NCBI GenBank assembly: GCA_002432635.1
Contig: DJFX01000047.1
Span: 320,766 to 384,765 of the forward strand
Direction: 5' to 3'
From: Halothiobacillaceae bacterium UBA5861
GTDB lineage: Bacteria > Pseudomonadota > Gammaproteobacteria > UBA5861
DNA: 64,000 bases
Positions 46,453 through 64,000 of the stretch are shown piece by piece. The notes beneath the pieces are model-generated. The model saw only the letters and a program-made list of their open reading frames with translations. It had not been told where the DNA came from and ran no database searches. Every line of letters begins with the position of its first letter. Position 1 is the stretch's first letter. Position numbers and translations under genes: made by a program.

Positions 46453-46818
46453 AATAAACGCCAGATACCATCTTCCTCATTCCCTATAGAAACATAATAG
46501 GAACATAGCCGACCATCACTCCGGCTAGTGATACCGCCCCTCATCGCGGTTGTTGGTTTCAATGGCATGCGCTCGCCACACCCTTCTCGATCATATTGGC
46601 TTTCATCATTCAAACCACCTCGAGCTATCATGCCTCACAAGGCCAGCCGACCAAATTAAGTGAACAATTTCATACATGAAGCTGTGCATTTTTTGCATAC
46701 CTTAAGTGCGAAACTAGCAGGAGACAACGGCACCGAAAGCTCTTTATGATCAGAACTCAAGGCATTTCCCATCGGCCACAACCTAAACACGATCCTGCAA
46801 ACCACGAGGGCTGAGTTC

Positions 46819-47946
46819 ATGACCACCAAAAAGCGATTATCTCGACGATCCTTCCTAAAAAACAGTGCCGGCGTTGCTGGTATGGTTGCATTCAGCAGCA
46901 GCTTGCTACCCAGACTGGCACAGGCAAAAGATTTAACCGTTGGTTTCATTTATGTGGGTGCAAAAGACGACTACGGCTATAACCAATCGCATGCAGAAGG
47001 TGCCGCTGCGATCAAAAAACTAGGCGGCATCACCGTCGTTGAAGAAGAGAATGTCCCCGAATCGGTTGAAGTGCTTAAAACCATGGAAAGCATGATCAAC
47101 TTTGATAGCGTTGACCTCTTGTTTCCAACCTCCTTTGGTTATTTTGATCCATTTGTTTTGCAGCTGGCGTCCAAATACAAAGACCTCCGGTTTGAACACT
47201 GTGGTGGCCTGTGGAGCCCTGAGCACCCAAAAAATGTCGGCTCTTATTTTGGTTACATTGGCATGGGGCAATATTTAAATGGCATCGCTGCAGGCCATGC
47301 CAGCAAGAGTAAGAAAATCGGTTTCGTTGCCGCAAAACCCATTCCTCAAGTGTTGTTAAACATCAACTCCTTCTTGCTCGGAGCCCGTTCAGTCGACCCC
47401 AGCATTACCTGCCAGGTCATTTTCACGGGAGAATGGTCACTCGCCGTCAAAGAAGCTGAAGCGACCAACGCCTTGATTGACCAGGGTGCAGACGTCATTA
47501 CCTGCCACGTTGATGGTCCTAAAGTGGTCATCGAAACAGCAGCAGGTCGCGGAGCTTATGTCTGTGGTTATCACGCTAACCAAAGCACCCTCGCACCAGA
47601 AAAATACCTGACAGGAGCTGAGTGGAACTGGGCAAATGTTTACACCAATATGGTTCAAACCGTCCAGGCCGGTAATACGATCCCTAACTTTCATCGTGGC
47701 GGACTGGCAGAGGGGTTTATCAAAATGAGTCCACTGGGTCCGGCTGTTTCCGACACGGCCAGGAAGCAATTTGAAGAAACCCAAGCGAAAATCCTTAAAG
47801 GAAACTATGCGGTCATTCAAGGTCCCATGAAAGACAACAAAGGCAACCTGATTGCCAAGGCAGGCGAATCATTTGTCGAAACAGATGTCGCACTGGAAAG
47901 CATGGACTATCTGGTAGAAGGCGTTATTGGTTCCACGTCTTCCTAA
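46819..47946 (+). CDS. BMP-family (basic membrane protein/PnrA-Med-like) ABC transporter substrate-binding protein with twin-arginine signal
   Basis: Tat motif SRRSFLK, signal ending AQA; BMP-family fold motifs. Confidence 0.8.
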   Translation: MTTKKRLSRRSFLKNSAGVAGMVAFSSSLLPRLAQAKDLTVGFIYVGAKDDYGYNQSHAEGAAAIKKLGGITVVEEENVPESVEVLKTMESMINFDSVDLLFPTSFGYFDPFVLQLASKYKDLRFEHCGGLWSPEHPKNVGSYFGYIGMGQYLNGIAAGHASKSKKIGFVAAKPIPQVLLNINSFLLGARSVDPSITCQVIFTGEWSLAVKEAEATNALIDQGADVITCHVDGPKVVIETAAGRGAYVCGYHANQSTLAPEKYLTGAEWNWANVYTNMVQTVQAGNTIPNFHRGGLAEGFIKMSPLGPAVSDTARKQFEETQAKILKGNYAVIQGPMKDNKGNLIAKAGESFVETDVALESMDYLVEGVIGSTSS

Positions 47947-47964
47947 CTGAACGAGCACGCCATA

Positions 47965-49065
47965 ATGCCGCTTGACAGTCCCCTGCTCCAGCACCTGGCT
48001 CGACGCTCAGAGGCGATCGCCATTCCTCTCATCGCACTGGCGGCAGGTTTTATTTTGTTTGCCCTCTTTTTACTGCTCCAGGGACAATCACCCGCGAACT
48101 ATTTTGCGCTTGTCTACAAGGCCGGTTTTGGTACAGCCTTTTCCTGGCAGAATACGCTCACACGGGCGTCCCCTCTCATCCTGGCAGCTTTGTGCGTCGC
48201 GCTCCCGGCGCGTCTAGGCCTGATTGTTATTGGTGGTGAGGGCGCGATTGTGCTTGGCGGTGTCGCAGCCAGTGCATTCGCCATGTTTTTTCCAGGCGCC
48301 ACAGGTCTTGTCGGGCTTTTATTGATGGGGGCCAGTGCTGCCGCAATGGGGGCACTCTGGATTGGGCTGATTGGTCTGATGCGATACGGGCGCGGCGTTA
48401 ACGAAACCATTTCCAGCCTCTTGATGGCCTACATTGGTGTGGCGCTCATGAATCATCTGGTCGAGGGCCCACTGCGAGATCCCAGCAGCTTGAATAAACC
48501 GGCGACGTACCCGCTGTCTGCTGAACAACGGTTGGGGAGCCTTCCAGGCCTGGATATCCACTGGGGCCTTGTAATCGGGATCGTCAGCTGTTTTCTGGTG
48601 TGGATTTTGATGACCTATACGCGCTGGGGATTCTCTGCACGCGTTGCCGGGGGTAATGTACGCGCTGCACAAGTCCAAGGCTTACCGGTTGGCATACTGA
48701 TCGTTGGCTTTACGGCTTTAGGTGGCGCCTTTGCTGGCCTTGCTGGCATGGTAGAAGTGGCTGCCGTACACGGCACTGCAAATGCTTCGTTGGCGTCAGG
48801 CTACGGTTACACCGGAATACTGGTTGCCTTTCTGGCGCGACACAATCCACTGGTTATTATCCCTGTTGCCGTTCTACTCGGTGGGTTCGAGGCCGCTAAT
48901 GGCCTTGTGCAACGGCGCATGGATTTACCCGATGCGACTGTTCTGGTTCTACAGGGTTTTGTCTTTATTTCCATCCTCATCAGCGAAACACTCTACGGCC
49001 GTATTCGCCTGTTTAACCCGGAACATTGGAAAATAACACCGGCAACCATGAGAGAAAACTCATGA
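47965..49065 (+). CDS. ABC transporter permease (BMP-type, YufP-like)
   Basis: 366 aa polytopic membrane protein directly downstream of the BMP binding protein. Confidence 0.8.
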   Translation: MPLDSPLLQHLARRSEAIAIPLIALAAGFILFALFLLLQGQSPANYFALVYKAGFGTAFSWQNTLTRASPLILAALCVALPARLGLIVIGGEGAIVLGGVAASAFAMFFPGATGLVGLLLMGASAAAMGALWIGLIGLMRYGRGVNETISSLLMAYIGVALMNHLVEGPLRDPSSLNKPATYPLSAEQRLGSLPGLDIHWGLVIGIVSCFLVWILMTYTRWGFSARVAGGNVRAAQVQGLPVGILIVGFTALGGAFAGLAGMVEVAAVHGTANASLASGYGYTGILVAFLARHNPLVIIPVAVLLGGFEAANGLVQRRMDLPDATVLVLQGFVFISILISETLYGRIRLFNPEHWKITPATMRENS

Positions 49066-49985
49066 CAACTGACATTGGACTCTGGGGCGTGCCTCTCGCA
49101 ATTATCGGCGGCGCCATTCGTGTTTCAACACCGTTTTTATTCGTGAGCCTGGGCGAGTGCTTAACTGAACGTTCAGGCCGTATTAATCTTGGATTAGAAG
49201 GCACACTCGTCTTTGGCGCCATGTCTGGCTATGCTACCGCTTACCTCACCGGGTCACCCTGGCTGGGCGTGCTTGCGGCGGCTATCTGTGGCTTTGGCTT
49301 TGGGCTGGTACATGGGTGGATATGCGCTCTTCCACGGGTTAATGATATCGCCGTTGGAATAGCTCTGATGCTATTTGGCATGGGCCTGGCTTTTTTCTTT
49401 GGCAAACCCTTTATTCAACCTGTCGCGCCAGACCTGCCAACTATTAACCTGGGGGCCTGGTCAGACATCCCCCAAATCCAGGCTGCGTTAAAAATCAATG
49501 TGTTATTTATTATTGGTATTGTACTGGCCGTCACCATGGCCTGGATGTTTCGCAACACTCAACTGGGCCTGACCATTCGAGTCGTGGGCGATAGCGATGC
49601 TGCAGCTCGTGCCATGGGTTTAAAAACGAATAGGATACGTTTTCTCAGCACAGCGTGTGGAGGGGCTTTAGCAGGTATCGGCGGTGCCTACCTGTCTCTT
49701 TACTACCCCGGCAGCTGGAACGAAGGCTTATCTTCCGGCCAGGGCTTAATGGCCGTAGCACTGGTGATCTTTGCTCGCTGGAACCCACTGAACTGTTTCT
49801 GGGCGGCCCTTTTATTCGGTGGTGCAGGTGCGTTAGGCCCGGCACTCCAGTCCATTGGCATCACCCAGGGGTATTATCTTTTTTATGCCGCACCTTACGT
49901 TTTGACCTTGGCGTTATTAATTGCAACCAGCTCACCTTCGAAAGCACTCACCGGCGCTCCCGGTGCGCTGAGCATTACCCGTTAG
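49062..49985 (+). CDS. ABC transporter permease (BMP-type, YufQ-like)
   Basis: Internal start MTTDIGLWG overlapping the upstream stop (ATGA); polytopic. Confidence 0.8.
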   Translation: MTTDIGLWGVPLAIIGGAIRVSTPFLFVSLGECLTERSGRINLGLEGTLVFGAMSGYATAYLTGSPWLGVLAAAICGFGFGLVHGWICALPRVNDIAVGIALMLFGMGLAFFFGKPFIQPVAPDLPTINLGAWSDIPQIQAALKINVLFIIGIVLAVTMAWMFRNTQLGLTIRVVGDSDAAARAMGLKTNRIRFLSTACGGALAGIGGAYLSLYYPGSWNEGLSSGQGLMAVALVIFARWNPLNCFWAALLFGGAGALGPALQSIGITQGYYLFYAAPYVLTLALLIATSSPSKALTGAPGALSITR

Positions 49986-49994
49986 GAGCTTTTT

Positions 49995-50672
49995 ATGACA
50001 ACGATTAACGCGGATCCTTACCATTGGCCTTACAACGGTGACTTAAAACCCGAAAATACCGCTCTGATCATAATCGATATGCAAACCGATTTTTGCGGGT
50101 TGGGCGGTTATGTTGACAGCATGGGGTACGATCTTGAATTAACCCGAGCCCCAATCGAACCCATCCAATCGGTGCTGAGCCACATGCGGGCCAAGGGCTA
50201 TCACATCTTACATACCCGGGAAGGGCACCGGCCGGACTTATCGGATTTGCCTGACAACAAGCGCTGGCGTTCACAGCAGGTGGGTATCGGCATTGGCGAT
50301 GCTGGCCCCTGCGGAAAAGTACTCGTGAGGGGCGAGCCCGGCTGGGAGATCATCAATGAACTCCGCCCGGAACCCGGTGAAGTGATTATCGACAAGCCAG
50401 GCAAAGGTAGCTTCTATGCCACAGACTTGGAACTGATCTTACACACTCGCGGCATTCAGAACATTATCCTCACAGGCATCACAACAGACGTTTGTGTTCA
50501 CACCACCATGCGCGAAGCCAATGACCGGGGATTTGAATGCCTTATTCTTGAGGACTGTTGTGGCGCAACCGATCAGGGCAACCATCACGCGGCCATCCAC
50601 ATGATCAAAATGCAAGGCGGTGTTTTTGGCAGTGTGTCCAACAGCCAGTCCATACTCAATGAGCTGCCCTGA
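49995..50672 (+). CDS. isochorismatase-family (cysteine) hydrolase, RutB/BiuH/CSHase-like amidohydrolase
   Basis: Catalytic Asp region [11 protein letters not shown] and Cys motif [20 protein letters not shown]. Confidence 0.8.
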
Positions 50673-50679
50673 GCCACCC

Positions 50680-52230
50680 ATGACGCATATCGAAAAGAAG
50701 ACCCACAGCGCGATTGGCATTGAAGTCATTGGAATGACAATGCGCTTTGGGAGCTTCACCGCTTTGAACCAGGTGTCCCTGAAAATTCCCCCCGGTCACT
50801 TCCATGCGCTGCTGGGAGAGAATGGCGCAGGAAAATCAACTCTGGTGAAGTGCATGATGGGTTTTTATCAGGCCACCGAGGGAGAAATCATCGTCAACGG
50901 CCGCCAAGCCGAAATCCTCGCACCGCAAGATGCGCATGCATTGGGCCTTGGTATGGTCTACCAGCACTTTACCCTGGCACCGTCCCTCACCGCCGCTGAA
51001 AATCTGCTGGTTAGCCGGCGTGATGCTTCTACCGTTATCCATTGGTCACAGGAAAAACAAAAACTGACCGATTTCTTGGGCACGATGCCCTTTACTGTTC
51101 CCCTGGAACGGAAGGTTTACGCACTCTCAGCCGGCGAAAAACAAAAACTGGAAATACTCAAACAACTGTATCTCGGCTGCCATTTTTTAATTTTGGACGA
51201 ACCCACCTCTGTGCTCACATTATCGGAAGCCGACGAAGTGCTGGGCCTGATACGCCAGTTATGCCAAGCAGGCCAAATTACGGCCTTGATGATTTCCCAC
51301 AAGTTTCGCGAAGTCACCACCTATGCCGACGAGGTGACCATCTTGCGCAAAGGGGAACGGGTTGGGCAGGGCCAAACGTCTCAACTCTCAGTTGCTGAAA
51401 TGGCAACCATGATGGTGGGTAAACCCGTTACCCAAAACATTTATGAGCGCCAGCCACACACACCTGTCCCCGTGCTCTCACTGGAAAATATCTGTTGTGA
51501 AGATCGCAGTGGCCTGAAAAGCATAGAAATCGACTCACTCAACGTGTGTGCAGGCGAAATTGTCGGCGTTGCAGGCGTCTCTGGCAATGGCCAGGTCGAG
51601 TTGATGGAGGTGCTCACGGGTCAGCGCTCACTGCAAGCCGGTGGTATTTATGTCCAGGGTGAACCTTTTCGAGCCACACGCGAGGAAGCCTTTAAACACA
51701 ATGTACGTTTTCTCCCAGAGGAACCGCTACATAATGCCTGCGTTTCGGGCATGTCCGTCAAAGAAAATATTGCGCTCCGGGATTTCGACAGAGATCCCCA
51801 GCAAAAACGCTTATTCTGGCTTAAAAAGCGCTTGATGCGCTCACGATCAGCCCAGCTGGTGACGGATTTCAATGTTAAAACAACCTCACTGGACACACCC
51901 ATTGAGTCTCTCTCTGGGGGCAATATACAGCGCGCCGTTCTCGCCCGGGAACTCACAGGCAAAGTTGACTTGCTCATCATCTCCAACCCCTGTTTCGGCT
52001 TGGACTTTTCAGCCGTTGCGGATATCCGTGACCGCATTATGCAGGCCCGCAACGCGGGTGCCGCCGTTTTACTCATCAGCGAAGACCTCGATGAAATTAT
52101 GGAGTTATCAGATCGGGTACTGGTGATGTCTGAAGGCCAAATCACTTATGAAAGCCCGATTGAACAGACAACGCTTGAACAGATTGGTCAGCACATGGCC
52201 GGCCACAGGACAACCGCATGGATAAACTAA
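50680..52230 (+). CDS. ABC transporter ATP-binding protein with duplicated NBD (BMP/sugar-type double ATPase)
   Basis: First Walker [10 protein letters not shown] and second NBD with LSGGNIQR signature; start at MTHIEKK after the upstream stop. Confidence 0.85.
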
Positions 52231-52889
52231 CGATTCAGGCCAGGCCTCACGCCTTTAGCTACCAGCCGAACACATCTGCGCTGATCGTCATTGACATGCA
52301 ACGTGACTTTATTGACTCCGGTGGATTTGGAGAGAGCCTGGGGAATGATGTTTCCCGGCTGCAAAAAATCATTCCCGCAGTGAAACGGCTGATCAACGGT
52401 TTCCGGGGCGTTGGCATCACGATCATCCACACCCGGGAATGCCATTTACCAGACTTATCTGACTGCCCGGACGCAAAACGTTACCGGGGTAACCCCGGTC
52501 TTCGAATCGGCGACCCAGGCCCCATGGGACGCTTGCTGGTAAAAGGTGAACCGGGCGTTGAAATTATCCCAGCACTTGCACCCATCCCCGGTGAAAAAGT
52601 CATCGACAAACCTGGAAAAGGGGCTTTCTACCACACGGACCTGCAAGAGTTTTTACAAGACCAACACATCGAGACCTTGTTTTTTGCCGGGGTTACCACC
52701 GAAGTGTGTGTTCAATCAACCATGCGGGAGGCTAATGACCGGGGCTACTTCTGTCTGTTAGCGCGTGATGCAACAGAAAGCTACTTTGACGTCTTCAAAC
52801 AAACAACCATCGACATGATTGAAGCCCAAGGCGCCATTGTGGGATGGACCGCCACAGTCGATGACATTTTGACTTCTTTTCATGCTTAA
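52218..52889 (+). CDS. isochorismatase-family hydrolase, paralog of 49995-50672
   Basis: [11 protein letters not shown] and [20 protein letters not shown]; same Cys-PGK(G) spacing as the paralog. Confidence 0.8.
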
Positions 52890-53238
52890 GCCAGGTATTT
52901 TTCAAACACTACTCAGCGAGGGCTGGAAACAGCACCGTTTCGAACCCTTTCACGAAGGTGTACAAATCTGCACTTTGTGGGCAGAAGAAACCACGCTGGC
53001 GCTCCTCAAGTACGAGCCGGGGGCCTCAGTCCCCCGCCACCGCCATACCGGGACTGAGCTGATTCTCGTGCTAGAAGGCTCACAAAGCGACGAACATGCG
53101 ACTTATCCGAAAGGGAGTGTCATCCTCAACCCGGCGGGTTCAGAACACTCGGTTTGGTCTGAGCAGGGTTGTGTTATTTTAATTCACTGGGAAAAGCCGG
53201 TCGAGTTCATCAACGCTTGTGATGAAACATTTAAATGA
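52882..53238 (+). CDS. cupin-domain protein (ChrR-like cupin)
   Basis: 118 aa; His-containing cupin motifs [16 protein letters not shown] and GSEHSV. Confidence 0.5.
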
Positions 53239-53369
53239 AAATGCCACAAAATGTTTTATGCGTTAATCATTTTGACAAACACCACCCATCAGCACCTTTA
53301 CTGACAAGCAAGTCCCCTTGACCCCGTAAGTATTCATGGGGTCGCCTTCGAGGGGCAGGTCGCCCTTAG

Positions 53370-54491
53370 CTAGCCCGACCGGGTAGGTAAAACCACGACA
53401 CCGCCACCTTCACAGGAAATCTCATCATCCTGAGTGACAGCTCGAATTTCGACGGCAACCATGAACTTTCCATCTTTTTCATATTTATCGGTCACTTGTC
53501 CGCTGATAGTAAGCAGATCACCCACAACATTATGCCTGCGAATACGGGCATTTAGCTTGTATAGCCAGCCATCATCACCCATCCAGTTGGTTAAAATGTG
53601 TGTCATCCAGGAAATACGCTCTGGGCCGTAGTCGTAAGGTGCAGGTGCACCAACGCGAGTCGCGAGCGCATCTTCCCAGTGAACTCGCTCAGGGACATCC
53701 GGAATATTTTGAGCATTTGGAATGGATGCACTCGGTGCCTTTTTCAGCAGTTTGTAGAGTAACTTGTGTGAACGAATAAAAATTCCTCCCCAACCCTGTA
53801 CAAAAGCAAGAAAGCCCGTCACGGTCATCGGACCCTTTAGAATGGATGGAATTGCATCGCCAATTTTGACATCTTCCCAATAAAGTGTCTCACCACCACG
53901 GACATATTCGTTGATGTACTGCTCCGAAATCGCTTCAATTTCTGCGTCGGTATAGCGCTTATCCAGCTTGATATCTTCGTATTTCTTACCTTTTTCACGG
54001 GCAGAATCTCGCTCTGTACGAAAAGCCCACTGTTCGCATTCCGCGACTTTTTCATCATCTTGGTTAAAGAAATCGAAGTGAACAATCTGTTGAATGGACT
54101 TCCCGGAAAAGCGCGTTTTATGTTCGACTAAATCTTTCAGGTACGATTCTGTACGTATTTTTGTGCCAACTGGCATCGGTAAGTGCCAGGTCCAATTACC
54201 ACCGGCATACATTGCATGAATACCCGGCAACCCGTGGTAGGCATTCATTGGTGTCATCGCATGTAAAATACTGGGCGGTGCAATATTATTTTTATATTTG
54301 GATTGTTTACCGTATTCGCTGTCCAACCAGAGCGGGTTATCATCACCAATTCCGTGTGCGTAGTGACGAATCGCGTCTTCGTTACACTCGGTGAGCCACA
54401 CCACCGTATTTTCCATTTTTTTGCCAATGGTTTTACGCAACTCTTCGACCGCTTGATCGGAGATTGCCGGGAATCTACTCTCTGTGGACAT
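53370..54491 (-). CDS. double hotdog-fold MaoC-type acyl-CoA hydratase/dehydratase (itaconyl-/mesaconyl-CoA hydratase-like architecture)
   Basis: 373 aa with two hotdog halves; C-terminal MaoC signature region. Confidence 0.6.
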   Translation of the reverse strand: MSTESRFPAISDQAVEELRKTIGKKMENTVVWLTECNEDAIRHYAHGIGDDNPLWLDSEYGKQSKYKNNIAPPSILHAMTPMNAYHGLPGIHAMYAGGNWTWHLPMPVGTKIRTESYLKDLVEHKTRFSGKSIQQIVHFDFFNQDDEKVAECEQWAFRTERDSAREKGKKYEDIKLDKRYTDAEIEAISEQYINEYVRGGETLYWEDVKIGDAIPSILKGPMTVTGFLAFVQGWGGIFIRSHKLLYKLLKKAPSASIPNAQNIPDVPERVHWEDALATRVGAPAPYDYGPERISWMTHILTNWMGDDGWLYKLNARIRRHNVVGDLLTISGQVTDKYEKDGKFMVAVEIRAVTQDDEISCEGGGVVVLPTRSG

Positions 54492-54507
54492 TGTCTTTCC
54501 TCGTTAA

Positions 54508-56982
54508 TTAATAAATTATTTTCTTCTTTTTTAATTGTTCAATCGTTGATTGTTCCAAGCCAAGAATCTTGTCATAAACATAATCATCGTGCTCCCCTAG
54601 CAGAGGGGCCGCACTATAGATATCCAATGGAATCTTGCTCATTTGCCAGGGTATTCGGTACAGGTCTATCTCACCAAGCAAGGAATGTTTAGCCGTTTGG
54701 CGGAGCTTGCGACTGGCAAAGTGCGGGTGCTTGAATTGCTCTTCGATGGACAGTAACGGGGTTGCAGGTACACCTTCATCGCTCAACCTCTCTGCAATGT
54801 CATCCCGGTTTTGCTCGGCTGTCCATGCGTTTAAAGAATGCTCAATGCGGACTTCGTGTGCACGCCGGTCCTCCAACGTGTCAATATCATGCCACTCAAC
54901 CGGCTCCCCCATTATTTTTTTCAGTTGCCTCCATTGCTGATCGCTTTCCACGCTGATTGCAACCCACTGGTCTCGTCCGGCACATTGAAAATGACCGTGA
55001 GGTGTGAATAGCGGATGTGGGTTGATGGTTTTTTGAGTGCGCTTTGGATTATCTCCATTCCATTGAGTATCAATCATTGCCTCGGCAATGGCAGAAGCAC
55101 CGACTTCAAGCTGGGAGAAATCAATGTATTGTCCCTGCTGACTTTTCCGCCGGTGATACAATGCCGCCAGGATTGCATAAAGTGCGTGAATCCCTGCACT
55201 CATATCATTCAGCCCAAAATTGAGCATGCCAACAGGCGCTTCCCCCGGATACGCGAGCAAGGACTCAAGCCCCGAATACCCTGATAACACCGGTGCATAA
55301 CCTTTCAAGTCAGCGATGGGGCCGGACTGCCCAGCGCTTGATAGTGAAATCATCACCAGATCGGGACGTACTGTCTTTAATGAAGTGTAATCCAGCCCCA
55401 GTTTTGCAAGCGTACCCGGCGTGAAGTTTTCCAGCACAACATCGCTCTTGGCAACCAGGTTACGCAGCAGCTCTGCACCTTCTTCTGTTTTGATGTTAAG
55501 GCGAATGCTGAGTTTGTGGCGATTGACTTCATGGTAGAAAGGACCAAGTTCAATTGATTTTCCAGGTATTCGAAACAGCTCACCATCAAAGGTAGGGGCT
55601 CCTCTCAATCGGGCATTATCAAGCCGTTTCGTATGTTCAACTTTGATGACTTCCGCACCCAGGTCTGCGAGAAAGCCGGCCGCAAATGGGCCAGCCCAAA
55701 CCCATCCCAAGTCCAGTACGCGAAGCCCTTCGAGGGGGCGTTTGATGCTTTGCCTATGCGGAGTTTCCATGTTTGCTCGTTGGGTGAACTCTGAGCGGAT
55801 ACTGACGTTATGCTCCCCAAGTCGAGGGGGTGGTTTTAATGGCGGAACCGAACCACCGCTAAATTGAAATGGCATTTTGGGGATCTTCACTGGACCTCGC
55901 TCTACCATATCAAGTGTTCTAAAAAACTGGCGATGGGCAAATTGTGCTTCTTCAAGCGCTTGCCCAACGGTATTGACTGGCGCCATTGGAAAGCCCCACT
56001 GCCGAGCGAGTTTAAATAATTCCTGTTGTGTATAACGGGCAATCAATGGGCTGATTAATGCGTCAACTTCAGCGGAATAGTCCCGCCCCATCGCCACTTG
56101 GTCACGGTAGCGAGGGTTGTCCGCCCAATCCGGATTACCCATCGCCTTTAAAAACTGATCCCAGTCACGGGTAGACCTCGCAATCATCACAACCATGCCA
56201 TCTTTGCACGGGTAAAGCCCAAGTGGATAAGGCCCCATCGTGCCAAATGCCTGGTGCCCAGCTCGTTGCCACTGCAGGCCGTAGTAAATCATCAAGCTCG
56301 ACTGGATACCGGCATAGTTGGCCAAAATATCAGCCACTGATATGTCAATGAACTGGCCGCAACCGGTATCATCCCGCTGGATAAGTGCTGCCATTACAGC
56401 GGCGGCGGCATGCACGCCTCCTTGTGTATCCGCAAGAGTCAGTGGTAATTGCAGTGGTGCTTTATCGGGTGAACCAATGGCCCATGATGTCGATGACAGT
56501 GCGCTGGCATGTATTGCTGAGCCCAATCGGCCAGCGTAAAGTCCGGCCCAACCAAAATTACTGATTGCACAATAAATCAGGTGTGGATGCGTTTGTTTCA
56601 GGCTGTCGTAATCAAGACCGGCTTGCATCAACGCACTTTTATCCAACGCAGTTAAAAAAATATCACTGGATTTTAGGCGCTCAGCAAGCCACAGTTGGTC
56701 GCTTCTATCATCAAAATTAATGGTGATGGACTCTTTTCCGGTATCAAGAAAAGTGTGCAAAGCACTTTGTTCAATCTCTGGCTTGTCCTTTGGAAAGGGG
56801 CCATAGTGGCGGGCCAGCTTGCCATTAAAGGGTTCAAGCGAGATGACCCGGGCACCCATTTCAACAAGCAAGTGCGAGGCGTAGGGGGCTGAAGCAAGCC
56901 CACCCACTTCAATAACCGTGATTTCAGATAAGGTTTTATAGATATTTTTCATAGCATTAGAAATCAAAATCCCAAAAACCAT
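54508..56982 (-). CDS. tandem-fused family III CoA-transferase (two complete CaiB/BaiF/Frc-like domains in one 824 aa chain)
   Basis: Two repeats each beginning with a Rossmann-like L(x)VIEVGG / LRVLDLGW motif and each retaining a catalytic-Asp loop (ADTQGG; NDMSAG). Confidence 0.8.
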   Translation of the reverse strand: MVFGILISNAMKNIYKTLSEITVIEVGGLASAPYASHLLVEMGARVISLEPFNGKLARHYGPFPKDKPEIEQSALHTFLDTGKESITINFDDRSDQLWLAERLKSSDIFLTALDKSALMQAGLDYDSLKQTHPHLIYCAISNFGWAGLYAGRLGSAIHASALSSTSWAIGSPDKAPLQLPLTLADTQGGVHAAAAVMAALIQRDDTGCGQFIDISVADILANYAGIQSSLMIYYGLQWQRAGHQAFGTMGPYPLGLYPCKDGMVVMIARSTRDWDQFLKAMGNPDWADNPRYRDQVAMGRDYSAEVDALISPLIARYTQQELFKLARQWGFPMAPVNTVGQALEEAQFAHRQFFRTLDMVERGPVKIPKMPFQFSGGSVPPLKPPPRLGEHNVSIRSEFTQRANMETPHRQSIKRPLEGLRVLDLGWVWAGPFAAGFLADLGAEVIKVEHTKRLDNARLRGAPTFDGELFRIPGKSIELGPFYHEVNRHKLSIRLNIKTEEGAELLRNLVAKSDVVLENFTPGTLAKLGLDYTSLKTVRPDLVMISLSSAGQSGPIADLKGYAPVLSGYSGLESLLAYPGEAPVGMLNFGLNDMSAGIHALYAILAALYHRRKSQQGQYIDFSQLEVGASAIAEAMIDTQWNGDNPKRTQKTINPHPLFTPHGHFQCAGRDQWVAISVESDQQWRQLKKIMGEPVEWHDIDTLEDRRAHEVRIEHSLNAWTAEQNRDDIAERLSDEGVPATPLLSIEEQFKHPHFASRKLRQTAKHSLLGEIDLYRIPWQMSKIPLDIYSAAPLLGEHDDYVYDKILGLEQSTIEQLKKKKIIY

Positions 56983-57080
56983 GATGGATTATTTTCTTTA
57001 ATAGCCACTATAGATGAACAACCCGTTTTGAATCAAAAGCAGGATGACTTCATTTTGACATCAAGCAACTGACGTTTATA

Positions 57081-57197
57081 AACCAACAAACAGGTGTTGC
57101 AACCGCAAAGGCGGCAGGTGTCAAACGATGACTTGAATATTCAGCAAGGTAGGCCTGAATCACTTCATCAAGCGTCGCATAATGGGCGGTTGAAAAC
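57081..57197 (-). pseudogene. diverged duplicate fragment of glk (about residues 31-68 of the glucokinase at 61619-62629), frameshifted
   Basis: ~86% nucleotide identity by eye to 62418-62536, with 1 nt deletion. Confidence 0.6.
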
Positions 57198-57211
57198 ATT
57201 GGATATATGCT

Positions 57212-57331
57212 TCGAAAGGGAGTGTCATCCTCAACCCGGCGGGTTCAGAACATTCGGTTTGGCCTGAGCAGGGTTGTGTTATTTTGATTCACTGGGAAAA
57301 GCCGGTCGCATTCATCAACACTTTTGATGAA
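57212..57331 (+). pseudogene. diverged duplicate of the 3' end of the cupin gene (52882-53238)
   Basis: ~92% nucleotide identity by eye to 53108-53226. Confidence 0.65.
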
Positions 57332-57339
57332 GCAACGCC

Positions 57340-58443
57340 TTAAACGATCGCCTCTTCGGTGGCAGGATCAAACGCAACAATCATGGACGTATCAAAACCA
57401 AGCGCCATGGTCTCACCCACCTGACAAAGAGAGGAAGGTTGCACCCGCGCGATCACATCGGTTTTATTCAGACAAGTCGTCACCAAGGCATCGGGGCCTG
57501 TGAGCTCCACCCGATTTATCCGGCAGACACCGATTTGGATACGGCCCTCATGTTCCGGGGCATGGGTAATTTGCTCAGGACGGATACCCAACACCACCGC
57601 TTTGCCCACCCAAGCTTTGAGCGCTTGCGTGCAGTGCACCAAAGGAATGAAGATGCGCCCGGCGCCTCCTTCAAGAAAGGCTCCTAAACCCGATTCGGTT
57701 TGCTCGACCACAGCGGGAATAAAATTCATGGACGGAGAACCAAGAAAGCCCGCCACAAACATATTTTTGGGCGCATTATAAATAACCTGGGGCGGGCCAA
57801 ACTGTTGGATGATACCGTCTTTCATCACAGCGATGAGGTCACCGAGTGTCATCGCCTCAATCTGGTCATGCGTCACATACACCACGGTAGATTGAATCCG
57901 CTGATGCAGTTCTTTCATCTCGGCCCGCATTTCCACTCGCAGTTTGGCGTCAAGGTTACTCAGCGGTTCATCAAACAAGAAGATTGAAGGGTCACGCGCC
58001 AGCGCCCGCCCCATGGCCACCCGCTGACGCTGGCCACCGGAGAGCTGTGAGGGCTTTCTGTCCAGTAAATCTTCGATTTGCAGCATGGTTGCTACGCGCT
58101 GAACAGTTTCACGCTGTTCGGCTTTTGGCACTTTGCGAATCTCCAGGCCGAAGGAAATATTTTTGCGTACCGACATGTTGGGGTAGAGCGCATAGGACTG
58201 AAAGACCATAGCGATATCCCTGTCTTTGGGGCTTAAGTTCGTAACTTCACGCTCCCCAATATAAATATGGCCGCTGGTTGCGGCCTCTAAGCCCGCAATA
58301 ATATTCAACAAGGTTGACTTACCACAGCCCGACGGGCCAACCAGGATCAGAAATTGCCCCGGTTCAATGGCCACATTGATCCCTTTGAGCACCTCGGTAT
58401 CACCAAAAGACTTATATACATTCTCTATTTTTAACGCATGCAT
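57340..58443 (-). CDS. sugar ABC transporter ATP-binding protein, MalK/UgpC/GtsD type
   Basis: Walker A GPSGCGKST, LSGGQRQRVA, C-terminal TOBE-like domain. Confidence 0.85.
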   Translation of the reverse strand: MHALKIENVYKSFGDTEVLKGINVAIEPGQFLILVGPSGCGKSTLLNIIAGLEAATSGHIYIGEREVTNLSPKDRDIAMVFQSYALYPNMSVRKNISFGLEIRKVPKAEQRETVQRVATMLQIEDLLDRKPSQLSGGQRQRVAMGRALARDPSIFLFDEPLSNLDAKLRVEMRAEMKELHQRIQSTVVYVTHDQIEAMTLGDLIAVMKDGIIQQFGPPQVIYNAPKNMFVAGFLGSPSMNFIPAVVEQTESGLGAFLEGGAGRIFIPLVHCTQALKAWVGKAVVLGIRPEQITHAPEHEGRIQIGVCRINRVELTGPDALVTTCLNKTDVIARVQPSSLCQVGETMALGFDTSMIVAFDPATEEAIV

Positions 58444-58455
58444 CAGTGATTCACT

Positions 58456-59325
58456 TTATCCTTTAACCGAACCGGCGGTTAGCCCGCGCACAAAATACTT
58501 GCCTGATACGACATACACCACCAAAGTCGGCAATGCAGCAATAATGGCAGCCGCCATATCAACGTTATATTGTTTAACACCGGTCGAGGTATTAACCAGG
58601 TTATTCAAGGCAACTGTTATGGGTTGTTGATTACCCGCTGAATAAACCACACCGAATAAAAAGTCATTCCAAATCTGGGTGAATTGCCAGATGACAGAAA
58701 CGACAATGATTGGAGGTGAAAGCGGTAAGACAATACGGAAAAATATCAGCCAGAAGCCCGCGCCATCAATTCTTGCCGCGTTAGTGAGTTCACGGGGGAT
58801 ATTGACATAGAAATTCCGGAAAAAGAGCGTTGTGAAGGCAACCCCGTAAATCACATGTACAAATACCAGGCCCGCAACCGAACCGGAAATACCCAAAAAA
58901 CCAAGGGTTCTCGCCATGGGTAGTAAAACAACCTGAAAAGGAATGAAACAACCGAGTAGCAAAGCGCCAAACAGGACATCCGACCCGCGAAAGCGCCACT
59001 GAGTCAGCACATAACCATTGAAAGCGCCAATCATGGTCGAAATAACCACAGCTGGCACCACCATAAACACGGAATTCCAAAAATAACCTTTTAAGCCTTC
59101 ACAACTGACGCCCGTGCATGCGGAACCCCAGGCCACACGCCAGGCTTCCAGCGTAGGGTTGAGCGGTAACCCTAACAAGCTACCTGTACGAATCTCATCC
59201 AGGGGCTTCAATGAGGTCATGATCATCACAAACAGTGGGACTAAGTAATACACCGCAACCAGCAATAAACACCCATAAATAAACAGGCGACCCGCCCTAT
59301 GCTGTCGACCTACGGCCTTATTCAT
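58456..59325 (-). CDS. sugar ABC transporter permease (CUT1 family, MalG/GtsC-like)
   Basis: 289 aa, EAA-like loop region; 8 nt overlap with the upstream permease. Confidence 0.8.
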   Translation of the reverse strand: MNKAVGRQHRAGRLFIYGCLLLVAVYYLVPLFVMIMTSLKPLDEIRTGSLLGLPLNPTLEAWRVAWGSACTGVSCEGLKGYFWNSVFMVVPAVVISTMIGAFNGYVLTQWRFRGSDVLFGALLLGCFIPFQVVLLPMARTLGFLGISGSVAGLVFVHVIYGVAFTTLFFRNFYVNIPRELTNAARIDGAGFWLIFFRIVLPLSPPIIVVSVIWQFTQIWNDFLFGVVYSAGNQQPITVALNNLVNTSTGVKQYNVDMAAAIIAALPTLVVYVVSGKYFVRGLTAGSVKG

Positions 59326-60235
59326 TCCGCCCTCGCCGCAATTCTGAGTAAAGAAAAGGCACGATGATGGCCACCACAGCGGCTAACATCATCATCGCAC
59401 TGGCGGCACCCAGGCCAATCTGGCCGCGGGTAAACGAAAAGGCATACATAAATGTCGCTGGGACATCCGAGGCATAACCGGGACCACCGCCGGTGAGCGC
59501 CATCACCAAGTCAAAACTTTTGATGGCTATATGAGAAAGAATGATTAATGCGCTAAAAAACACCGGCCGCAAACTGGGGATCACAATGCGCCAGTAAATA
59601 GAAGGCAGTGATGCGCCATCTACCTGAGCGGCCTTAATAATGGTGTCATCAATACCCCGCAACCCTGCAAGAAAAAGCGCCATCACAAACCCTGAAGACT
59701 GCCAGACACCCGCGATGACAACGGTATAAATAGCTTTTTCCGGATCAACCAGCCAATCAAAGGTAAAATTCTCAAATCCTAAATCCCGCACTAATTTTTC
59801 AATACCCAGCCCGGGATTCAGCAGCCATTTCCAAGCCGTTCCTGTAACGATGAAGGACAGCGCCATGGGATAGAGATAGACTGTCCGAATTGCCCCTTCC
59901 AGCCTGACCTGCTGATCCAGCAAAATGGCCAAAAAAAGCCCGATAGCCATGCAAAGAACAATGAACAAGCCACCAAATATGGCTAAGTTTTCAGCGGCGA
60001 CCCACCAACGGTCATTGCTGAACAAACGAACATATTGCGTAAAACCGGCCCAATCCATCCGGGGCAACATGCGGGAGCTTGAAAAGGAAAGCCATGCATT
60101 CCAAAAAATGAACCCGTAAATGAATACAAGCGTGACAACGAATGTCGGTGCCATGACCAGCTTGGGTAGCAGACGCTCAAGCGCCGCTGCCGAAGCAAGG
60201 TCCTTGAAGAATGTTTTAGAGTGAGAAACAGGCAT
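59318..60235 (-). CDS. sugar ABC transporter permease (CUT1 family, MalF/GtsB-like)
   Basis: 305 aa polytopic protein with EAA motif region. Confidence 0.8.
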   Translation of the reverse strand: MPVSHSKTFFKDLASAAALERLLPKLVMAPTFVVTLVFIYGFIFWNAWLSFSSSRMLPRMDWAGFTQYVRLFSNDRWWVAAENLAIFGGLFIVLCMAIGLFLAILLDQQVRLEGAIRTVYLYPMALSFIVTGTAWKWLLNPGLGIEKLVRDLGFENFTFDWLVDPEKAIYTVVIAGVWQSSGFVMALFLAGLRGIDDTIIKAAQVDGASLPSIYWRIVIPSLRPVFFSALIILSHIAIKSFDLVMALTGGGPGYASDVPATFMYAFSFTRGQIGLGAASAMMMLAAVVAIIVPFLYSELRRGRNE

Positions 60236-60288
60236 CCGCTTCTAGCGCGCAGCTGGGGCAGGCGCCGAAACGCCTGACCCACGCTCAA

Positions 60289-61545
60289 TCACCGCGCATC
60301 TTTCACCGCAGCGGCAAGGGTTTCCGCTGCTTTCTCAGCAGGCATTTTATCGTCATTATAAAATTTGGTGACGACGTCGTAGATGGCCCCCTGAACCGAA
60401 GAGAATGTCGACATGCCGTGCGCCATACTGGGTACCAGTGTTGCTGTTTTTGCACTGGCGACAAATTCATCCATTGAGGTATGGGCACAGCTGTCAAACT
60501 TGTCTCGTGGCATATTTAAGCGGGCAGGAATGGATCCTTTATTCAGGTTGAAGACTTCCTGAAACTCCGGCTCCATAATGGTAGCGGCCAGTGCCATCTG
60601 GGCCTCCTGGCTGCTGCCAGCACCCACATCGAACATCACAAAACTGTCAATATTGAAAGTGAAGCTTCCTGCTGTACCGGGTGCCGCAACACACTCATAA
60701 TCAACACCGGGTTTCTTGCCCGCCGCCGTAAACTCACCTTTGGCCCAGTCACCCATGAACTGCATGGCCGCTTTACCATTAATAACCATCGCAGTCGCCA
60801 GATTCCAGTCACGCCCAGGCGCGTCTTTGTCTGTGTAGTGTTTGATTTTCCTGAGCACATCAAATGCTTGAATCATTGTGGGACTGTTGAGTGCAGACGG
60901 CTCCAAGTCAACAAATGCTTTGCGGTAGAAATCTGCCCCACCAATGCCCAAAACAACCGACTCAAATGTCGTTGAATCCTGCCACGCCTGACCACCGTGA
61001 GCGACAGGGATATATCCGGCAGCTTTGATTTTTTCTGCCGCAACAATAAACTCATCCCACGTTGTGGGAATTTTGGCGCCTGCTTTTTTGAAGATGTCGG
61101 GGTTTACCCACATCCAATTGACACGGTGAACATTGACAGGTACCGCTACATAGCTGCCTTTGTACTTCATCACATTTGCGACAACCGCTGGCAATAATTC
61201 ATCCCAGCCGCCCTGTTTGGCAACCTCATCCAGCGTGGCCAATACGCCTTCATCGCCCCATTCCTGAATAGATGGGCCTTTAATTTGTGCGGCTGTTGGA
61301 GGCTTACCGGAGACGACGCGTGATTTTAAAACCGTCATAGCGCTTTCACCGCCGCCACCAGCCACTGCAAAATCTTTCCAGGTATGCCCCTTAGCCTCCA
61401 GTAGTCGCTTCAGCTCGGCAGCTGATCGCGCTTCACCGCCTGACGTCCACCAGTGCAGTACTTCTACTTCGCCGGCCTTAACACCTGTTATCAGACAGAC
61501 ACTCATTACTGCGACCATGGCCGCACTTGCTAACTTTCTCATCAC
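60289..61545 (-). CDS. extracellular solute-binding protein, glucose/mannose-binding GtsA-like
   Basis: Signal peptide; EVEVLHWWTSGGE motif resembling Pseudomonas glucose-binding protein GtsA. Confidence 0.75.
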   Translation of the reverse strand: MMRKLASAAMVAVMSVCLITGVKAGEVEVLHWWTSGGEARSAAELKRLLEAKGHTWKDFAVAGGGGESAMTVLKSRVVSGKPPTAAQIKGPSIQEWGDEGVLATLDEVAKQGGWDELLPAVVANVMKYKGSYVAVPVNVHRVNWMWVNPDIFKKAGAKIPTTWDEFIVAAEKIKAAGYIPVAHGGQAWQDSTTFESVVLGIGGADFYRKAFVDLEPSALNSPTMIQAFDVLRKIKHYTDKDAPGRDWNLATAMVINGKAAMQFMGDWAKGEFTAAGKKPGVDYECVAAPGTAGSFTFNIDSFVMFDVGAGSSQEAQMALAATIMEPEFQEVFNLNKGSIPARLNMPRDKFDSCAHTSMDEFVASAKTATLVPSMAHGMSTFSSVQGAIYDVVTKFYNDDKMPAEKAAETLAAAVKDAR

Positions 61546-61618
61546 AGTACTCCTCCTTTTCGTAAAACGGCAGATTCACCATCACTCATGCCCATTACAT
61601 AGGAAACGTGCAATCATG

Positions 61619-62629
61619 TTATTGATTTGCCTCATTGTTATGTTTATAAGTCAGCCCAATGTGGCTGTATTTTTCGTCAAAGACGTGTGCAACGCCCAGC
61701 AAAGCGGGGGTATCACTTGTAATCACGAACGTTGGTATTGTTTGAAGGTATTCACTGAATCGGCCTCGCTGCTCAAATCGCTGGCGAAAAGATGATTGCT
61801 TCAATTCGTTCAGCAATCTCGGGATAATGCCGCCCCCGATGTAAACACCACCACGGGCACCCAGCGTTAAGGCTAAATTGCCTGCCACAACACCCAGCCA
61901 GCCGTAAAAGAGAGTCATTACTTCTTCACAGGTATCACAGGACTGTGCAGCCGCGCGGGTACTGATCGCTTTTGCAGACAAGGCTTGAGGTGGCTTGTTG
62001 TCCAACCCACATAACACGTGGTAAGTCTCAACCAGGCCCATACCTGAAATCAAACGCTCTGCTGACATATGTCCATAGCGGTTCCAAAAGACCTTGAAAA
62101 CCGCCAACTCCCGCTCTGTGGTGCCCCCAATCGTCACATGCCCACCTTCCCCGCTGAGTGGCATCCAGCCCAAGGGGGTTGGAATCAGGCCAGATACACC
62201 TAGCCCCGTGCCCGGGCCGATGACAGCGATGGCGCTACCGGAATCCGCATAACCGCCCCCAATCTGACAGTATTCCTCAGCAGCAAGAAAAGGAATCGAG
62301 AGTGCAAGCGCGGTGAAGTCGTTGATCACCTTAAACTCGGCAAACCCCAATCCCTTGCATAATCCGCTGATCGAAAATGACCAGGTATTATTTGTCAATT
62401 CGATTCGGTCGCTCTGCACAGGTGTTGCAACCGCAAGGGCAGCACGTGTCAAATTATTACTTGGACACTCGGCAAGGTAGGCCTGAATTGCTTCATCAAG
62501 CGTCGCATAATGAGCGGTTGAAAAACGCTGGATATAATCAGGGCGCAACATGCCTGGCTCGATGAGCCCAAACCGTGCATGAGTTCCGCCGATATCGCCC
62601 ACCAGCGTTGTGAGCTTATTCACGAGCAT
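61619..62629 (-). CDS. glk: glucokinase
   Basis: LVGDIGGTHARFGL ATP-binding N-terminus, 336 aa ROK-independent Glk family. Confidence 0.9.
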   Translation of the reverse strand: MLVNKLTTLVGDIGGTHARFGLIEPGMLRPDYIQRFSTAHYATLDEAIQAYLAECPSNNLTRAALAVATPVQSDRIELTNNTWSFSISGLCKGLGFAEFKVINDFTALALSIPFLAAEEYCQIGGGYADSGSAIAVIGPGTGLGVSGLIPTPLGWMPLSGEGGHVTIGGTTERELAVFKVFWNRYGHMSAERLISGMGLVETYHVLCGLDNKPPQALSAKAISTRAAAQSCDTCEEVMTLFYGWLGVVAGNLALTLGARGGVYIGGGIIPRLLNELKQSSFRQRFEQRGRFSEYLQTIPTFVITSDTPALLGVAHVFDEKYSHIGLTYKHNNEANQ

Positions 62630-62875
62630 ACTCCTCTCACTTTAGTACGACAGCCGCAATTCTTAATTTCACGTACTTTGGCACCACGTTCCCCGGCACC
62701 GCAGATCAATACCTGTTAAACGAACCCACGACGCATTATTTATACTCCTCAAACACTTAACAAGAAATAAATGGACGAACTGTAAGTCTGATGACTGCAA
62801 ATTTCTTTATCATTAAGCTCACAAGGCAGGTAAAGGACAGGTGATAAATTTGATGTCTGATGAGAGAAGCAGAAT

Positions 62876-63721
62876 ATGCGTTTATTAATGGGGATATTTG
62901 GGAGTCTACTGCTTTTATCAGGTTGCAGTAATGGGGGCACCGAGGACACAAACAATCAGCCTGCCGATCCGGCTGATCCCCCTCCGGCAACGCAACGCTG
63001 GTATCACCCACCCCTTTCTGTCAGTTGGCACATCCAATTAACGGGGCCCATCAATACCACTTACACGGTACAACTTTACGACATTGACCTTTTTGACTCA
63101 GCGAAAGACTTCATTGAAGAATTCCAATCAACAGGTATCAAGGTCATTTGTTACTTTTCGGCAGGTTCTTATGAGAACTGGCGCCCCGATGCCCAAGCGT
63201 TTCAAGCCAGCGATGTAGGTCACGCACTGGCGGGTTGGCCTGGTGAGAGCTGGCTGGATATCCGGTCAGATAATGTCCGCCGCATCATGCAAAAGCGCCT
63301 TGATCAAGCAAAAGACAAAGGCTGCGATGGCGTCGACCCGGATAATATGGACGGATATAAAAACAATACAGGGTTTCGCCTGACCGCCTCTGACCAGTTA
63401 AACTACAGCCGGTTTATTGCCGAAGAAGCGCATGCAAGGGGGCTCGCCGTTGGACTCAAGAATAACCTTGATCAGGTTGAAGAGCTGGTCGACTATTTTG
63501 ATTTTGCTGTCAACGAGCAATGCTTTGAATACCGCGAATGTTCCGCGCTAGCACCTTTTATCGAAAAAAATAAGCCTGTATTGAATATTGAGTATCAACA
63601 ACAGTATGTCGACCATGCCACGTTAAGAGATTTACTGTGCAACGATGCGATCAACAGACAATTCAGCACATTGATTCTTCCACTGGAGTTGGATGATGCA
63701 TTCCGTCTCAGCTGCTTGTAA
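62876..63721 (+). CDS. glycoside hydrolase family 114 lipoprotein (endo-alpha-1,4-polygalactosaminidase / PelA-hydrolase-domain-like)
   Basis: Lipobox LLSGC; TIM-barrel GH114-like motifs (YFSAGSYENWRPD, GCDGVDPDNMD). Confidence 0.65.
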   Translation: MRLLMGIFGSLLLLSGCSNGGTEDTNNQPADPADPPPATQRWYHPPLSVSWHIQLTGPINTTYTVQLYDIDLFDSAKDFIEEFQSTGIKVICYFSAGSYENWRPDAQAFQASDVGHALAGWPGESWLDIRSDNVRRIMQKRLDQAKDKGCDGVDPDNMDGYKNNTGFRLTASDQLNYSRFIAEEAHARGLAVGLKNNLDQVEELVDYFDFAVNEQCFEYRECSALAPFIEKNKPVLNIEYQQQYVDHATLRDLLCNDAINRQFSTLILPLELDDAFRLSCL

Positions 63722-63755
63722 GGATCACAAACCACGCGCTCACAATACTTATCGT

Positions 63756-63995
63756 TCACAAGCGAGCAGAAGCATTGCTGACAACAAAGGTTTCAAAAGG
63801 CAATTTTTTAATGTGATCAGCCATGAGCACGTATGCCACTGTGAAACTGGCGATAGAAGACAGCGCATAACCCCAGCCGTACCAAGACAAGCCCAAGCCA
63901 AGACTGGCCCAGGTAAAGAGTGTGTTCGTCACCAGAAAAACAATCGACACGTACAACACTTTAAGGCGGGCATCAAAATAAGTGAGTATTGTCAT
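63756..63995 (-). CDS. C-terminal part of a polytopic membrane protein (possibly polysaccharide transporter/flippase-like); ORF apparently continues beyond the window end
   Basis: Hydrophobic segments; in-frame sense codon precedes the first Met at the window edge. Confidence 0.3.
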   Translation of the reverse strand: MTILTYFDARLKVLYVSIVFLVTNTLFTWASLGLGLSWYGWGYALSSIASFTVAYVLMADHIKKLPFETFVVSNASARL

Positions 63996-64000
63996 TAAGA

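Follow-up and report, generated by a model that had tools for sequence, protein, structure and literature searches.

A chimera of glk and cupin gene fragments between a CoA-transferase operon and a sugar ABC transporter operon in Halothiobacillaceae bacterium UBA5861

Gene order and anatomy of the spacer

The window is the whole stretch of DNA analyzed, 64,000 nucleotides of Halothiobacillaceae bacterium UBA5861 (contig DJFX01000047.1), and coordinates refer to it unless another locus is named. Downstream of lptD-surA-pdxA lies an operon (~46456-53238) encoding a Bmp-family binding protein, two permeases, an ABC ATPase, two isochorismatase-family hydrolases, and a cupin. It is followed by two minus-strand blocks, one harboring a hydratase (hyd) and a CoA-transferase (CoAT) and the other a sugar ABC transporter (gtsDCBA) and a glucokinase (glk). 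The start of the CoA-transferase (56982) and the stop of gtsD (57340) are separated by a 357-nt spacer (56983-57339), which contains the feature under study. The relevant features are as follows.

50620-52230, plus strand: Bmp-type ABC ATPase
52218-52889, plus strand: isochorismatase-family hydrolase
52882-53238, plus strand: cupin of the ChrR C-terminal type, 118 codons
53106-53238, plus strand: intact cupin, 3′ portion corresponding to the cupin relic
53206-53226, with a relic copy at 57311-57331: palindrome TTCATCA-N7-TGATGAA (7+7+7), ending 3 nt before the breakpoint
53230-57089, minus strand: 3.86-kb segment, read here as inserted, comprising a tail, hyd, CoAT, and the upstream intergenic region
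53230-53369: tail of the segment, 140 nt, possibly the decayed first ~27 codons of an ECH gene
53370-54491, minus strand: MaoC/hotdog hydratase (hyd)
54508-56982, minus strand: fused double CaiB-type CoA-transferase (CoAT)
57007-57036, minus strand: predicted sigma-70-like promoter (TTGATT-18-TATAGT) for the CoA-transferase operon, with conservation across all four related lineages
57090-57210, minus strand: glk relic, codons 31-71, with one base lost (frameshift at codon 35) and truncated on both sides (BLASTN and comparison with the sister species)
57211-57343, plus strand: cupin relic, codons 76-116 followed by ACG CCT TAA (BLASTN and comparison with the sister species)
57340-61545, minus strand: sugar ABC transporter genes gtsD, C, B, and A
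57340-58443, minus strand: gtsD, a complete UgpC/MalK-type sugar ABC ATPase whose stop overlaps that of the cupin relic in a TTAA
61619-62629, minus strand: intact glk (glucokinase)
62418-62539, minus strand: intact glk, codons 31-71, corresponding to the glk relic

From left to right, the locus now reads cupin(1-116) / ECH-stub-hyd-CoAT-promoter region / glk(71→31) / cupin(76-118) overlapping gtsD / gtsCBA-glk.

A BLASTN comparison of positions 57000-57450 with the whole window returns two significant matches, both in the orientation of the full genes. Positions 57213-57334 match the cupin at 53108-53229 (93.4%, 114/122, ungapped, E = 5e-49), and positions 57090-57207 match glk at 62418-62536 (86.6%, 103/119, one 1-nt gap, E = 2e-35). 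There is no third significant match, all other hits within the window having E ≥ 0.08. The glk and cupin fragments that a first-pass annotation had noticed in the spacer are therefore real, and the BLASTN that it had proposed as a check places both similarities far above chance. The loss of one base from the glk fragment, with the resulting frameshift, is likewise borne out. The glk copy itself exists as described, while its BLASTN limits shift from 57081-57197 to 57090-57207 and its extent from codons 31-68 to codons 31/32-71. The two fragments had also been placed within 14 bp of each other. With the sister species (locus L001, described below) as a third comparator, the glk fragment reaches 57210 and the cupin fragment starts at 57211, such that the two abut flush with zero filler. 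The cupin relic is 92% identical to the L001 cupin, and the glk relic is 84% identical to the L001 glk.

The glk relic is limited to codons 31-71 and carries a 1-nt deletion; the cupin relic is limited to codons 76-118 and lacks a start. Judged from its sequence, the 245-base stretch consists of decayed, truncated copies of two nearby genes joined end to end, i.e., gene-fragment pseudogenes. At the joint, glk codon 31 (equivalent position 62539) is connected in direct orientation to cupin codon 76 (equivalent position 53106), a distal end leading into a proximal start. Microhomology at this joint (57210/57211) amounts to 0-1 nt as judged against the intact genes and L001, a count that a decay of 7-14% could have lowered by erasure.

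Likeness of the cupin relic to the intact cupin stops after codon 116 (53229), and the in-frame TAA that follows in the relic (57341-57343) occupies codon 119, the same number as the stop of the intact cupin. This stop overlaps that of gtsD (57340-57342 on the minus strand, where TTA reads as TAA). The cupin relic is thus probably the original cupin 3′ end at its original junction with gtsD.

At least eight independent assemblies contain the spacer with both fragments (99.9% identical), including GCA_052030945.1 and GCA_002410135.1 at NCBI and several ENA metagenomes from different projects and assemblers. The exact cupin protein is encoded on 22 contigs; the ten loci fetched are all 99.9-100% identical to the window over the DNA they hold, and those reaching the spacer share the gene order and both fragments. 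Contig L103 has the same arrangement at 99.9%. The relic structure is fixed in the species. One metagenome scaffold (L102) is 99.6% identical to window positions 59551-57604 and then continues into 171 nt of unrelated GC-rich DNA (L102 1949-2119). The diverged gtsD predicted on it (P0321) is rejected as genuine, as L102 is most likely a chimeric scaffold yielding a spurious “truncated gtsD”.

The sister species and the age of the chimera

In the collections searched, the clade is represented by two species, the sole other one being a gammaproteobacterial MAG (L001) that is ~90% identical in the flanking DNA. Its cupin shares 92% amino acid identity with that of the window, and its structure is backed by an independent contig (L090, 99.8%). 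In L001, the cupin is followed directly by a homologue of window 61269-62929, i.e., the first ~92 codons of gtsA plus glk, without CoAT or hyd. The gtsA remnant (L001 10355-10670) is decayed, harboring three frameshifts and a 33-nt deletion; gtsBCD are missing at this locus, and glk is kept. L001 has later lost gtsDCB and most of gtsA, and hence this glucose ABC transporter. The absence of CoAT-hyd from L001 applies to a locus at which the L001 deletion spans the insertion site. A 7-nt repeat, ACGCCTT, found in the relic tail and in gtsA, was considered as the cause of that deletion and rejected as a misfit with the L001 junction.

Because the L001 cupin adjoins the gtsA remnant and glk, the cupin and gts-glk blocks were already neighbors in the common ancestor, and the hydratase/CoA-transferase pair is not needed to explain their adjacency. 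The first-pass annotation had the hydratase/CoA-transferase block and the gts-glk block brought together by an event involving duplication of 53.1-62.5 kb. The L001 arrangement, with its neighboring cupin and gts-glk blocks and no pair between them, does not support this; it is the hydratase/CoA-transferase pair that was inserted.

The three copies of each fragment can be compared directly, with identities and unique changes (relic/intact/L001) as follows.

Cupin: intact vs relic 115/124; intact vs L001 115/124; relic vs L001 114/124; unique changes 5/4/5
glk: intact vs relic 104/121; intact vs L001 103/122; relic vs L001 103/121; unique changes 8/8/9

Private changes are also found on the intact genes and the copies form an equidistant star; therefore, the relic is not a recent in-situ copy. 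The relic lineage would have split at about the time the two species did, or it may derive from a third lineage of similar depth. The star, at 7-14% divergence where conspecific strains differ by ~0.1%, contradicts the description of the event as recent in the first-pass annotation. Within the set of only 13 relic-private changes, about 9-10 are non-synonymous and 3-4 synonymous, in addition to one indel. This mostly non-synonymous pattern, together with the frameshift, is consistent with neutral decay. The number of relic changes is no higher than that of the functional copies (5 vs 4-5 in the cupin and 8 vs 8-9 in glk), slightly fewer than a wholly neutral history would be expected to leave, and it fits a partial stay in the functional genes of another lineage.

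Intermediates were sought by scanning genome and metagenome contigs with the cupin protein; the scans yielded the window species, L001, and then Alphaproteobacteria and cyanobacteria at ≤59%. No intermediate is found among the glk homologues, of which the next relative is 62% identical and lies in an unrelated context, and cluster look-ups with every gene of the locus return conspecific variants only.

Elsewhere in the window, a 2.4-kb region (44028-46455) between pdxA and the Bmp-type ABC operon is missing in L001 and present in all conspecific contigs. It encodes a GNAT/DUF3335 protein and a RimK-like ATP-grasp protein. Synteny with L001 stops ~300 bp upstream of glk (window 62930-64000 vs L001 11980 onward), beyond which the window harbors a GH114-family gene (62876-63721) and L001 a ketoacyl synthase and a TetR regulator.

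Origin of the hydratase/CoA-transferase segment

The closest CoA-transferases share 77-85% amino acid identity and come from four other lineages. CoAT adjoins a divergent GNAT acetyltransferase gene in L078, L082, and L100, and it is the first gene of the operon in GNAT(-)/CoAT-hyd-ECH-EamA-ACAD in both L078 and L082. Window 53371-56954 is 81.5% identical in nucleotides to L078/L082. The upstream intergenic region is homologous as well: its Smith-Waterman score is 27, the mean for shuffled sequences is 9.8, and 0/1000 shuffles reach the observed value. This homology is traceable to ~57072, and the 137 nt of 56953-57089 compare with 140 nt of the L078 GNAT-CoAT intergenic region, which the segment carries in full. 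The predicted CoAT promoter sits inside the segment and outside the relic. At the opposite end, the tail (53230-53369) bears a colinear, weak resemblance to L078 ECH codons ~11-27 (9-16/1000 shuffles, p ~ 0.01). A blastn-short search of both flanks against all fetched loci gave no match; the promoter-region homology (significant) and the ECH resemblance (marginal) surfaced only by Smith-Waterman alignment with shuffling.

The native operon of the window species (L094; GCA_052030945.1, JBPEYB010000020.1) reads GNAT(-)/272 bp/ECH-EamA-ACAD and is devoid of CoAT-hyd, such that the acquired pair at 53.4-57.0 kb is the only copy found in the species. The 272-bp spacer of the native operon (L094 9729-10000) contains no cupin, glk, or gts fragment and hence provides no evidence for a reciprocal exchange.

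The synonymous divergence and composition of the pair also differ from those of host genes. The pS values against L078 are 0.59-0.63 for CoAT and hyd, whereas those of seven native-locus genes are saturated at 0.74-0.91. CoAT has a GC3 of 48.5 and hyd one of 45.5, both within the 44-49 of the L078 genes, as compared to 50-62 for 14 genes of the window species. The lower pS and the L078-like GC3 argue for horizontal acquisition, and the reading that suits CoAT-hyd best is that of a xenologue whose source was a lower-GC relative of the L078/L082 group. An intragenomic cut-and-paste of the native CoAT-hyd is unlikely and rejected on the same synonymous divergence and GC3.

The segment lacks the hallmarks of a mobile element (IS, transposon, integron cassette, or integrative island) and of a plasmid origin, both of which are rejected. 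Between 53.2 and 57.3 kb there is no transposase or integrase, the only ORFs being those of the hydratase and the CoA-transferase. No tRNA or recombinase gene is adjacent, and no plasmid relative was found. The direct repeat flanking the insert is a 124-nt gene fragment and not a short target-site duplication.

Reconstruction and competing histories

On balance, and with somewhat better than even confidence, the 245-nt chimera is a scar without function, in the course of decay, left where a single old illegitimate insertion ends on its right-hand side. We infer the ancestral junction, the single event, and its mechanism as follows. The ancestral cupin would have converged on gtsD with overlapping stops (cupin → ← gtsDCBA-glk). 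A composite DNA would then have entered at a single site, which can be placed behind cupin codon 116 or just as well ahead of codon 76. It would have consisted of (i) the 3.86-kb foreign segment with the CoAT promoter region, CoAT, hyd, and a stub of the gene that follows, (ii) 121 nt copied from glk codons 71→31, and (iii) 124 nt duplicating cupin codons 76-116. A relic stop at the native codon number that overlaps the stop of a complete gtsD would be expected if this were the original junction; otherwise, it is a coincidence. The intact ancestral cupin/gtsD junction is seen in no genome, the clade comprising two species of which L001 is deleted there.

An origin in situ is favored, for which two sub-routes fit equally. 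In the first, the composite would arise by template switching during replication, which yields short copies of nearby sequence at breakpoints. In the second, the interval from cupin codon 76 to glk codon 31, 5.4 kb long at that time, would have been transiently duplicated in tandem, and its left copy would have been overwritten by the foreign DNA. Templated insertions are found at the breakpoints of replication-based rearrangements of the FoSTeS/MMBIR type, for example at E. coli amplification junctions (PMC3161906). The chimera shares with such scars a distal-proximal joint in the same orientation, ~120-nt copies of nearby sequence, and a local duplication (cupin codons 76-116) flanking the insert. 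It differs from them in that its joints, after 7-14% decay, lack demonstrable microhomology, one of the templates would be foreign DNA, and the event is read from a single surviving structure. The anatomy of the glk/cupin joint, with no visible microhomology, gives template switching no positive support; at the joint between the promoter region and glk, a 6-nt match is present in L078 alone. As diagnostic microhomologies are no longer visible after 7-14% decay, the scar is assignable neither to template switching nor to homology-facilitated illegitimate recombination.

The latter process underlies the main rival account, which carries some weight but is clearly the less probable. Here, the DNA would have been imported from an unsampled third sister lineage in which CoAT-hyd had replaced gtsDCBA and most of glk, from cupin codon 116 to glk codon 71. 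Entry would have proceeded by homologous pairing on the left and an illegitimate join of glk codon 31 to cupin codon 76, or by a single crossover (Campbell-type) of a circle via the cupin. The intact cupin and the glk relic would then be donor DNA, and the cupin relic and the intact glk would belong to the recipient. Competent bacteria and E. coli conjugation provide documented cases of homology-facilitated illegitimate recombination, which can leave recipient sequence duplicated or deleted (PMC3240628). As in the present case, it places foreign DNA beside homologous sequence on one side and creates an illegitimate joint on the other (PMC3240628). The three-way star is what would be expected of three co-radiating lineages, the relic shows no excess of changes, as if it had been selected for part of its history, and the number of events is small (two). 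However, the typical joints of this process contain 3-10 nt of microhomology, of which the illegitimate joint here shows none. The relic changes look neutral (~9-10 non-synonymous to 3-4 synonymous). A single scan of the genome contigs, another of the metagenome contigs, and the cluster look-ups found neither the donor lineage nor its allele, with only the window and L001 types of cupin detected ahead of relatives at ≤59%, and the next glk at 62%.

The history proposed in the first-pass annotation is improbable. In it, CoAT-hyd was already in place, the 9.4-kb interval 53108-62536 was tandemly duplicated or circularized, and two deletions followed, in which the left copy lost gtsDCBA and most of glk and the right copy lost X1-hyd-CoAT-promoter. 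Bacteria commonly undergo tandem duplication. The geometry expected of a duplication or circle joint, with glk codon 31 connected to cupin codon 76, was correctly recognized and does mark a past rearrangement; the connection of a segment end to its start is what tandem-duplication junctions also display. They differ from the present structure in that here only ~120 nt are duplicated at each end and the interiors are unrelated, CoAT-hyd in one and gtsDCBA-glk in the other. Two interior copies, as a tandem duplication needs, are not seen, the self-BLAST giving only the two ~120-nt matches. In addition, at least four events are called for (an initial insertion, then the duplication and a pair of deletions), the two deletions must share one ancestral end nucleotide (57089/57335), and one of them must leave or restore an in-frame stop at the native cupin codon, overlapping the gtsD stop. 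One composite insertion is more economical than a 9.4-kb duplication and two deletions that share an endpoint.

A further proposal concerns the cupin end itself, which may conceivably be a recurrent, sequence-directed breakpoint, with downstream gene blocks exchanged by an undescribed site-specific or hairpin-triggered process. Three cupin 3′ ends (window 53206-53229 and 57311-57334; L001 10325-10348) diverge after the same codon 116. The intact window cupin continues with TTTAAATGA, the cupin relic with ACGCCTTAA, and the L001 cupin with ATACTGTAG, running into the gtsA remnant. All three arrangements yield a 118-codon ORF, and the switch lies 3 nt past the palindrome. Selection for an intact cupin narrows the viable insertion sites but leaves the left end of the L001 deletion unexplained. 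Taken together, such a swap is given little credence.

It is very improbable that the chimera has been kept for a function, be it as a terminating or regulatory spacer between the gts and CoA-transferase operons or as a 49-aa ORF. The spacer does separate the 3′ end of a minus-strand operon from the promoter of the following one, and an ORF of this length exists on the minus strand (57050-57199). This ORF starts at a new ATG generated at the 1-nt deletion and reads the frameshifted glk relic. There is no gene call in the spacer in any assembly, the 49-aa ORF included. A structured RNA is rejected on the basis of Rfam, which gives no match at E ≤ 1 in 52800-57600, and a terminator within the relic is rejected on account of the minus strand of 57090-57339, which has no terminator-like site. 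The relic-specific substitutions are mostly non-synonymous. Conspecific strains, at ~0.1% divergence, are too similar for a conservation test. A present function of the relic is unlikely.

Chance similarity or the assembly artifact (collapsed repeat) that the first-pass annotation had named as an alternative is excluded, to near certainty, by E values of 5e-49 and 2e-35 and by the identical structure in at least eight independent assemblies.

Read as the scar of one old insertion, the chimera is of a known kind, a rearrangement scar of pseudogene fragments, and this instance is undocumented; it represents ordinary genome wear and not a new element. It resembles other intergenic gene-fragment pseudogenes in being truncated, frameshifted, and unannotated, with a near-neutral substitution pattern. 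It differs from them in joining fragments of two genes that lie 9 kb apart, a fusion that records the topology of the event and not simple gene decay. The locus provides a dated, base-resolved case of an acquired gene pair wedged between two chromosomal operons without mobile-element machinery. The pair is lost from the native operon elsewhere in the genome, making this a xenologous replacement at a new locus. Because its adjacency to the gts-glk block would be an accident of insertion, CoAT-hyd is not to be read as linked to glucose uptake. In annotation, the spacer should be labeled as pseudogene fragments. Beyond the example of insertion and this annotation, the feature is a routine trace of genome rearrangement.

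Two minor observations concern the neighboring genes. The nearest relatives of the cupin outside the clade (≤59% aa) belong to Rhizobiaceae and other Alphaproteobacteria, which suggests that the whole Bmp-to-cupin block (~46456-53238) is an older transfer. The CoA-transferase (54508-56982; 813-824 aa) is a fusion of two CaiB/type III CoA-transferase domains. Its start is called at 56982, and homology with its relatives begins only at ~56952; the true start may lie 10 codons downstream of the called one.
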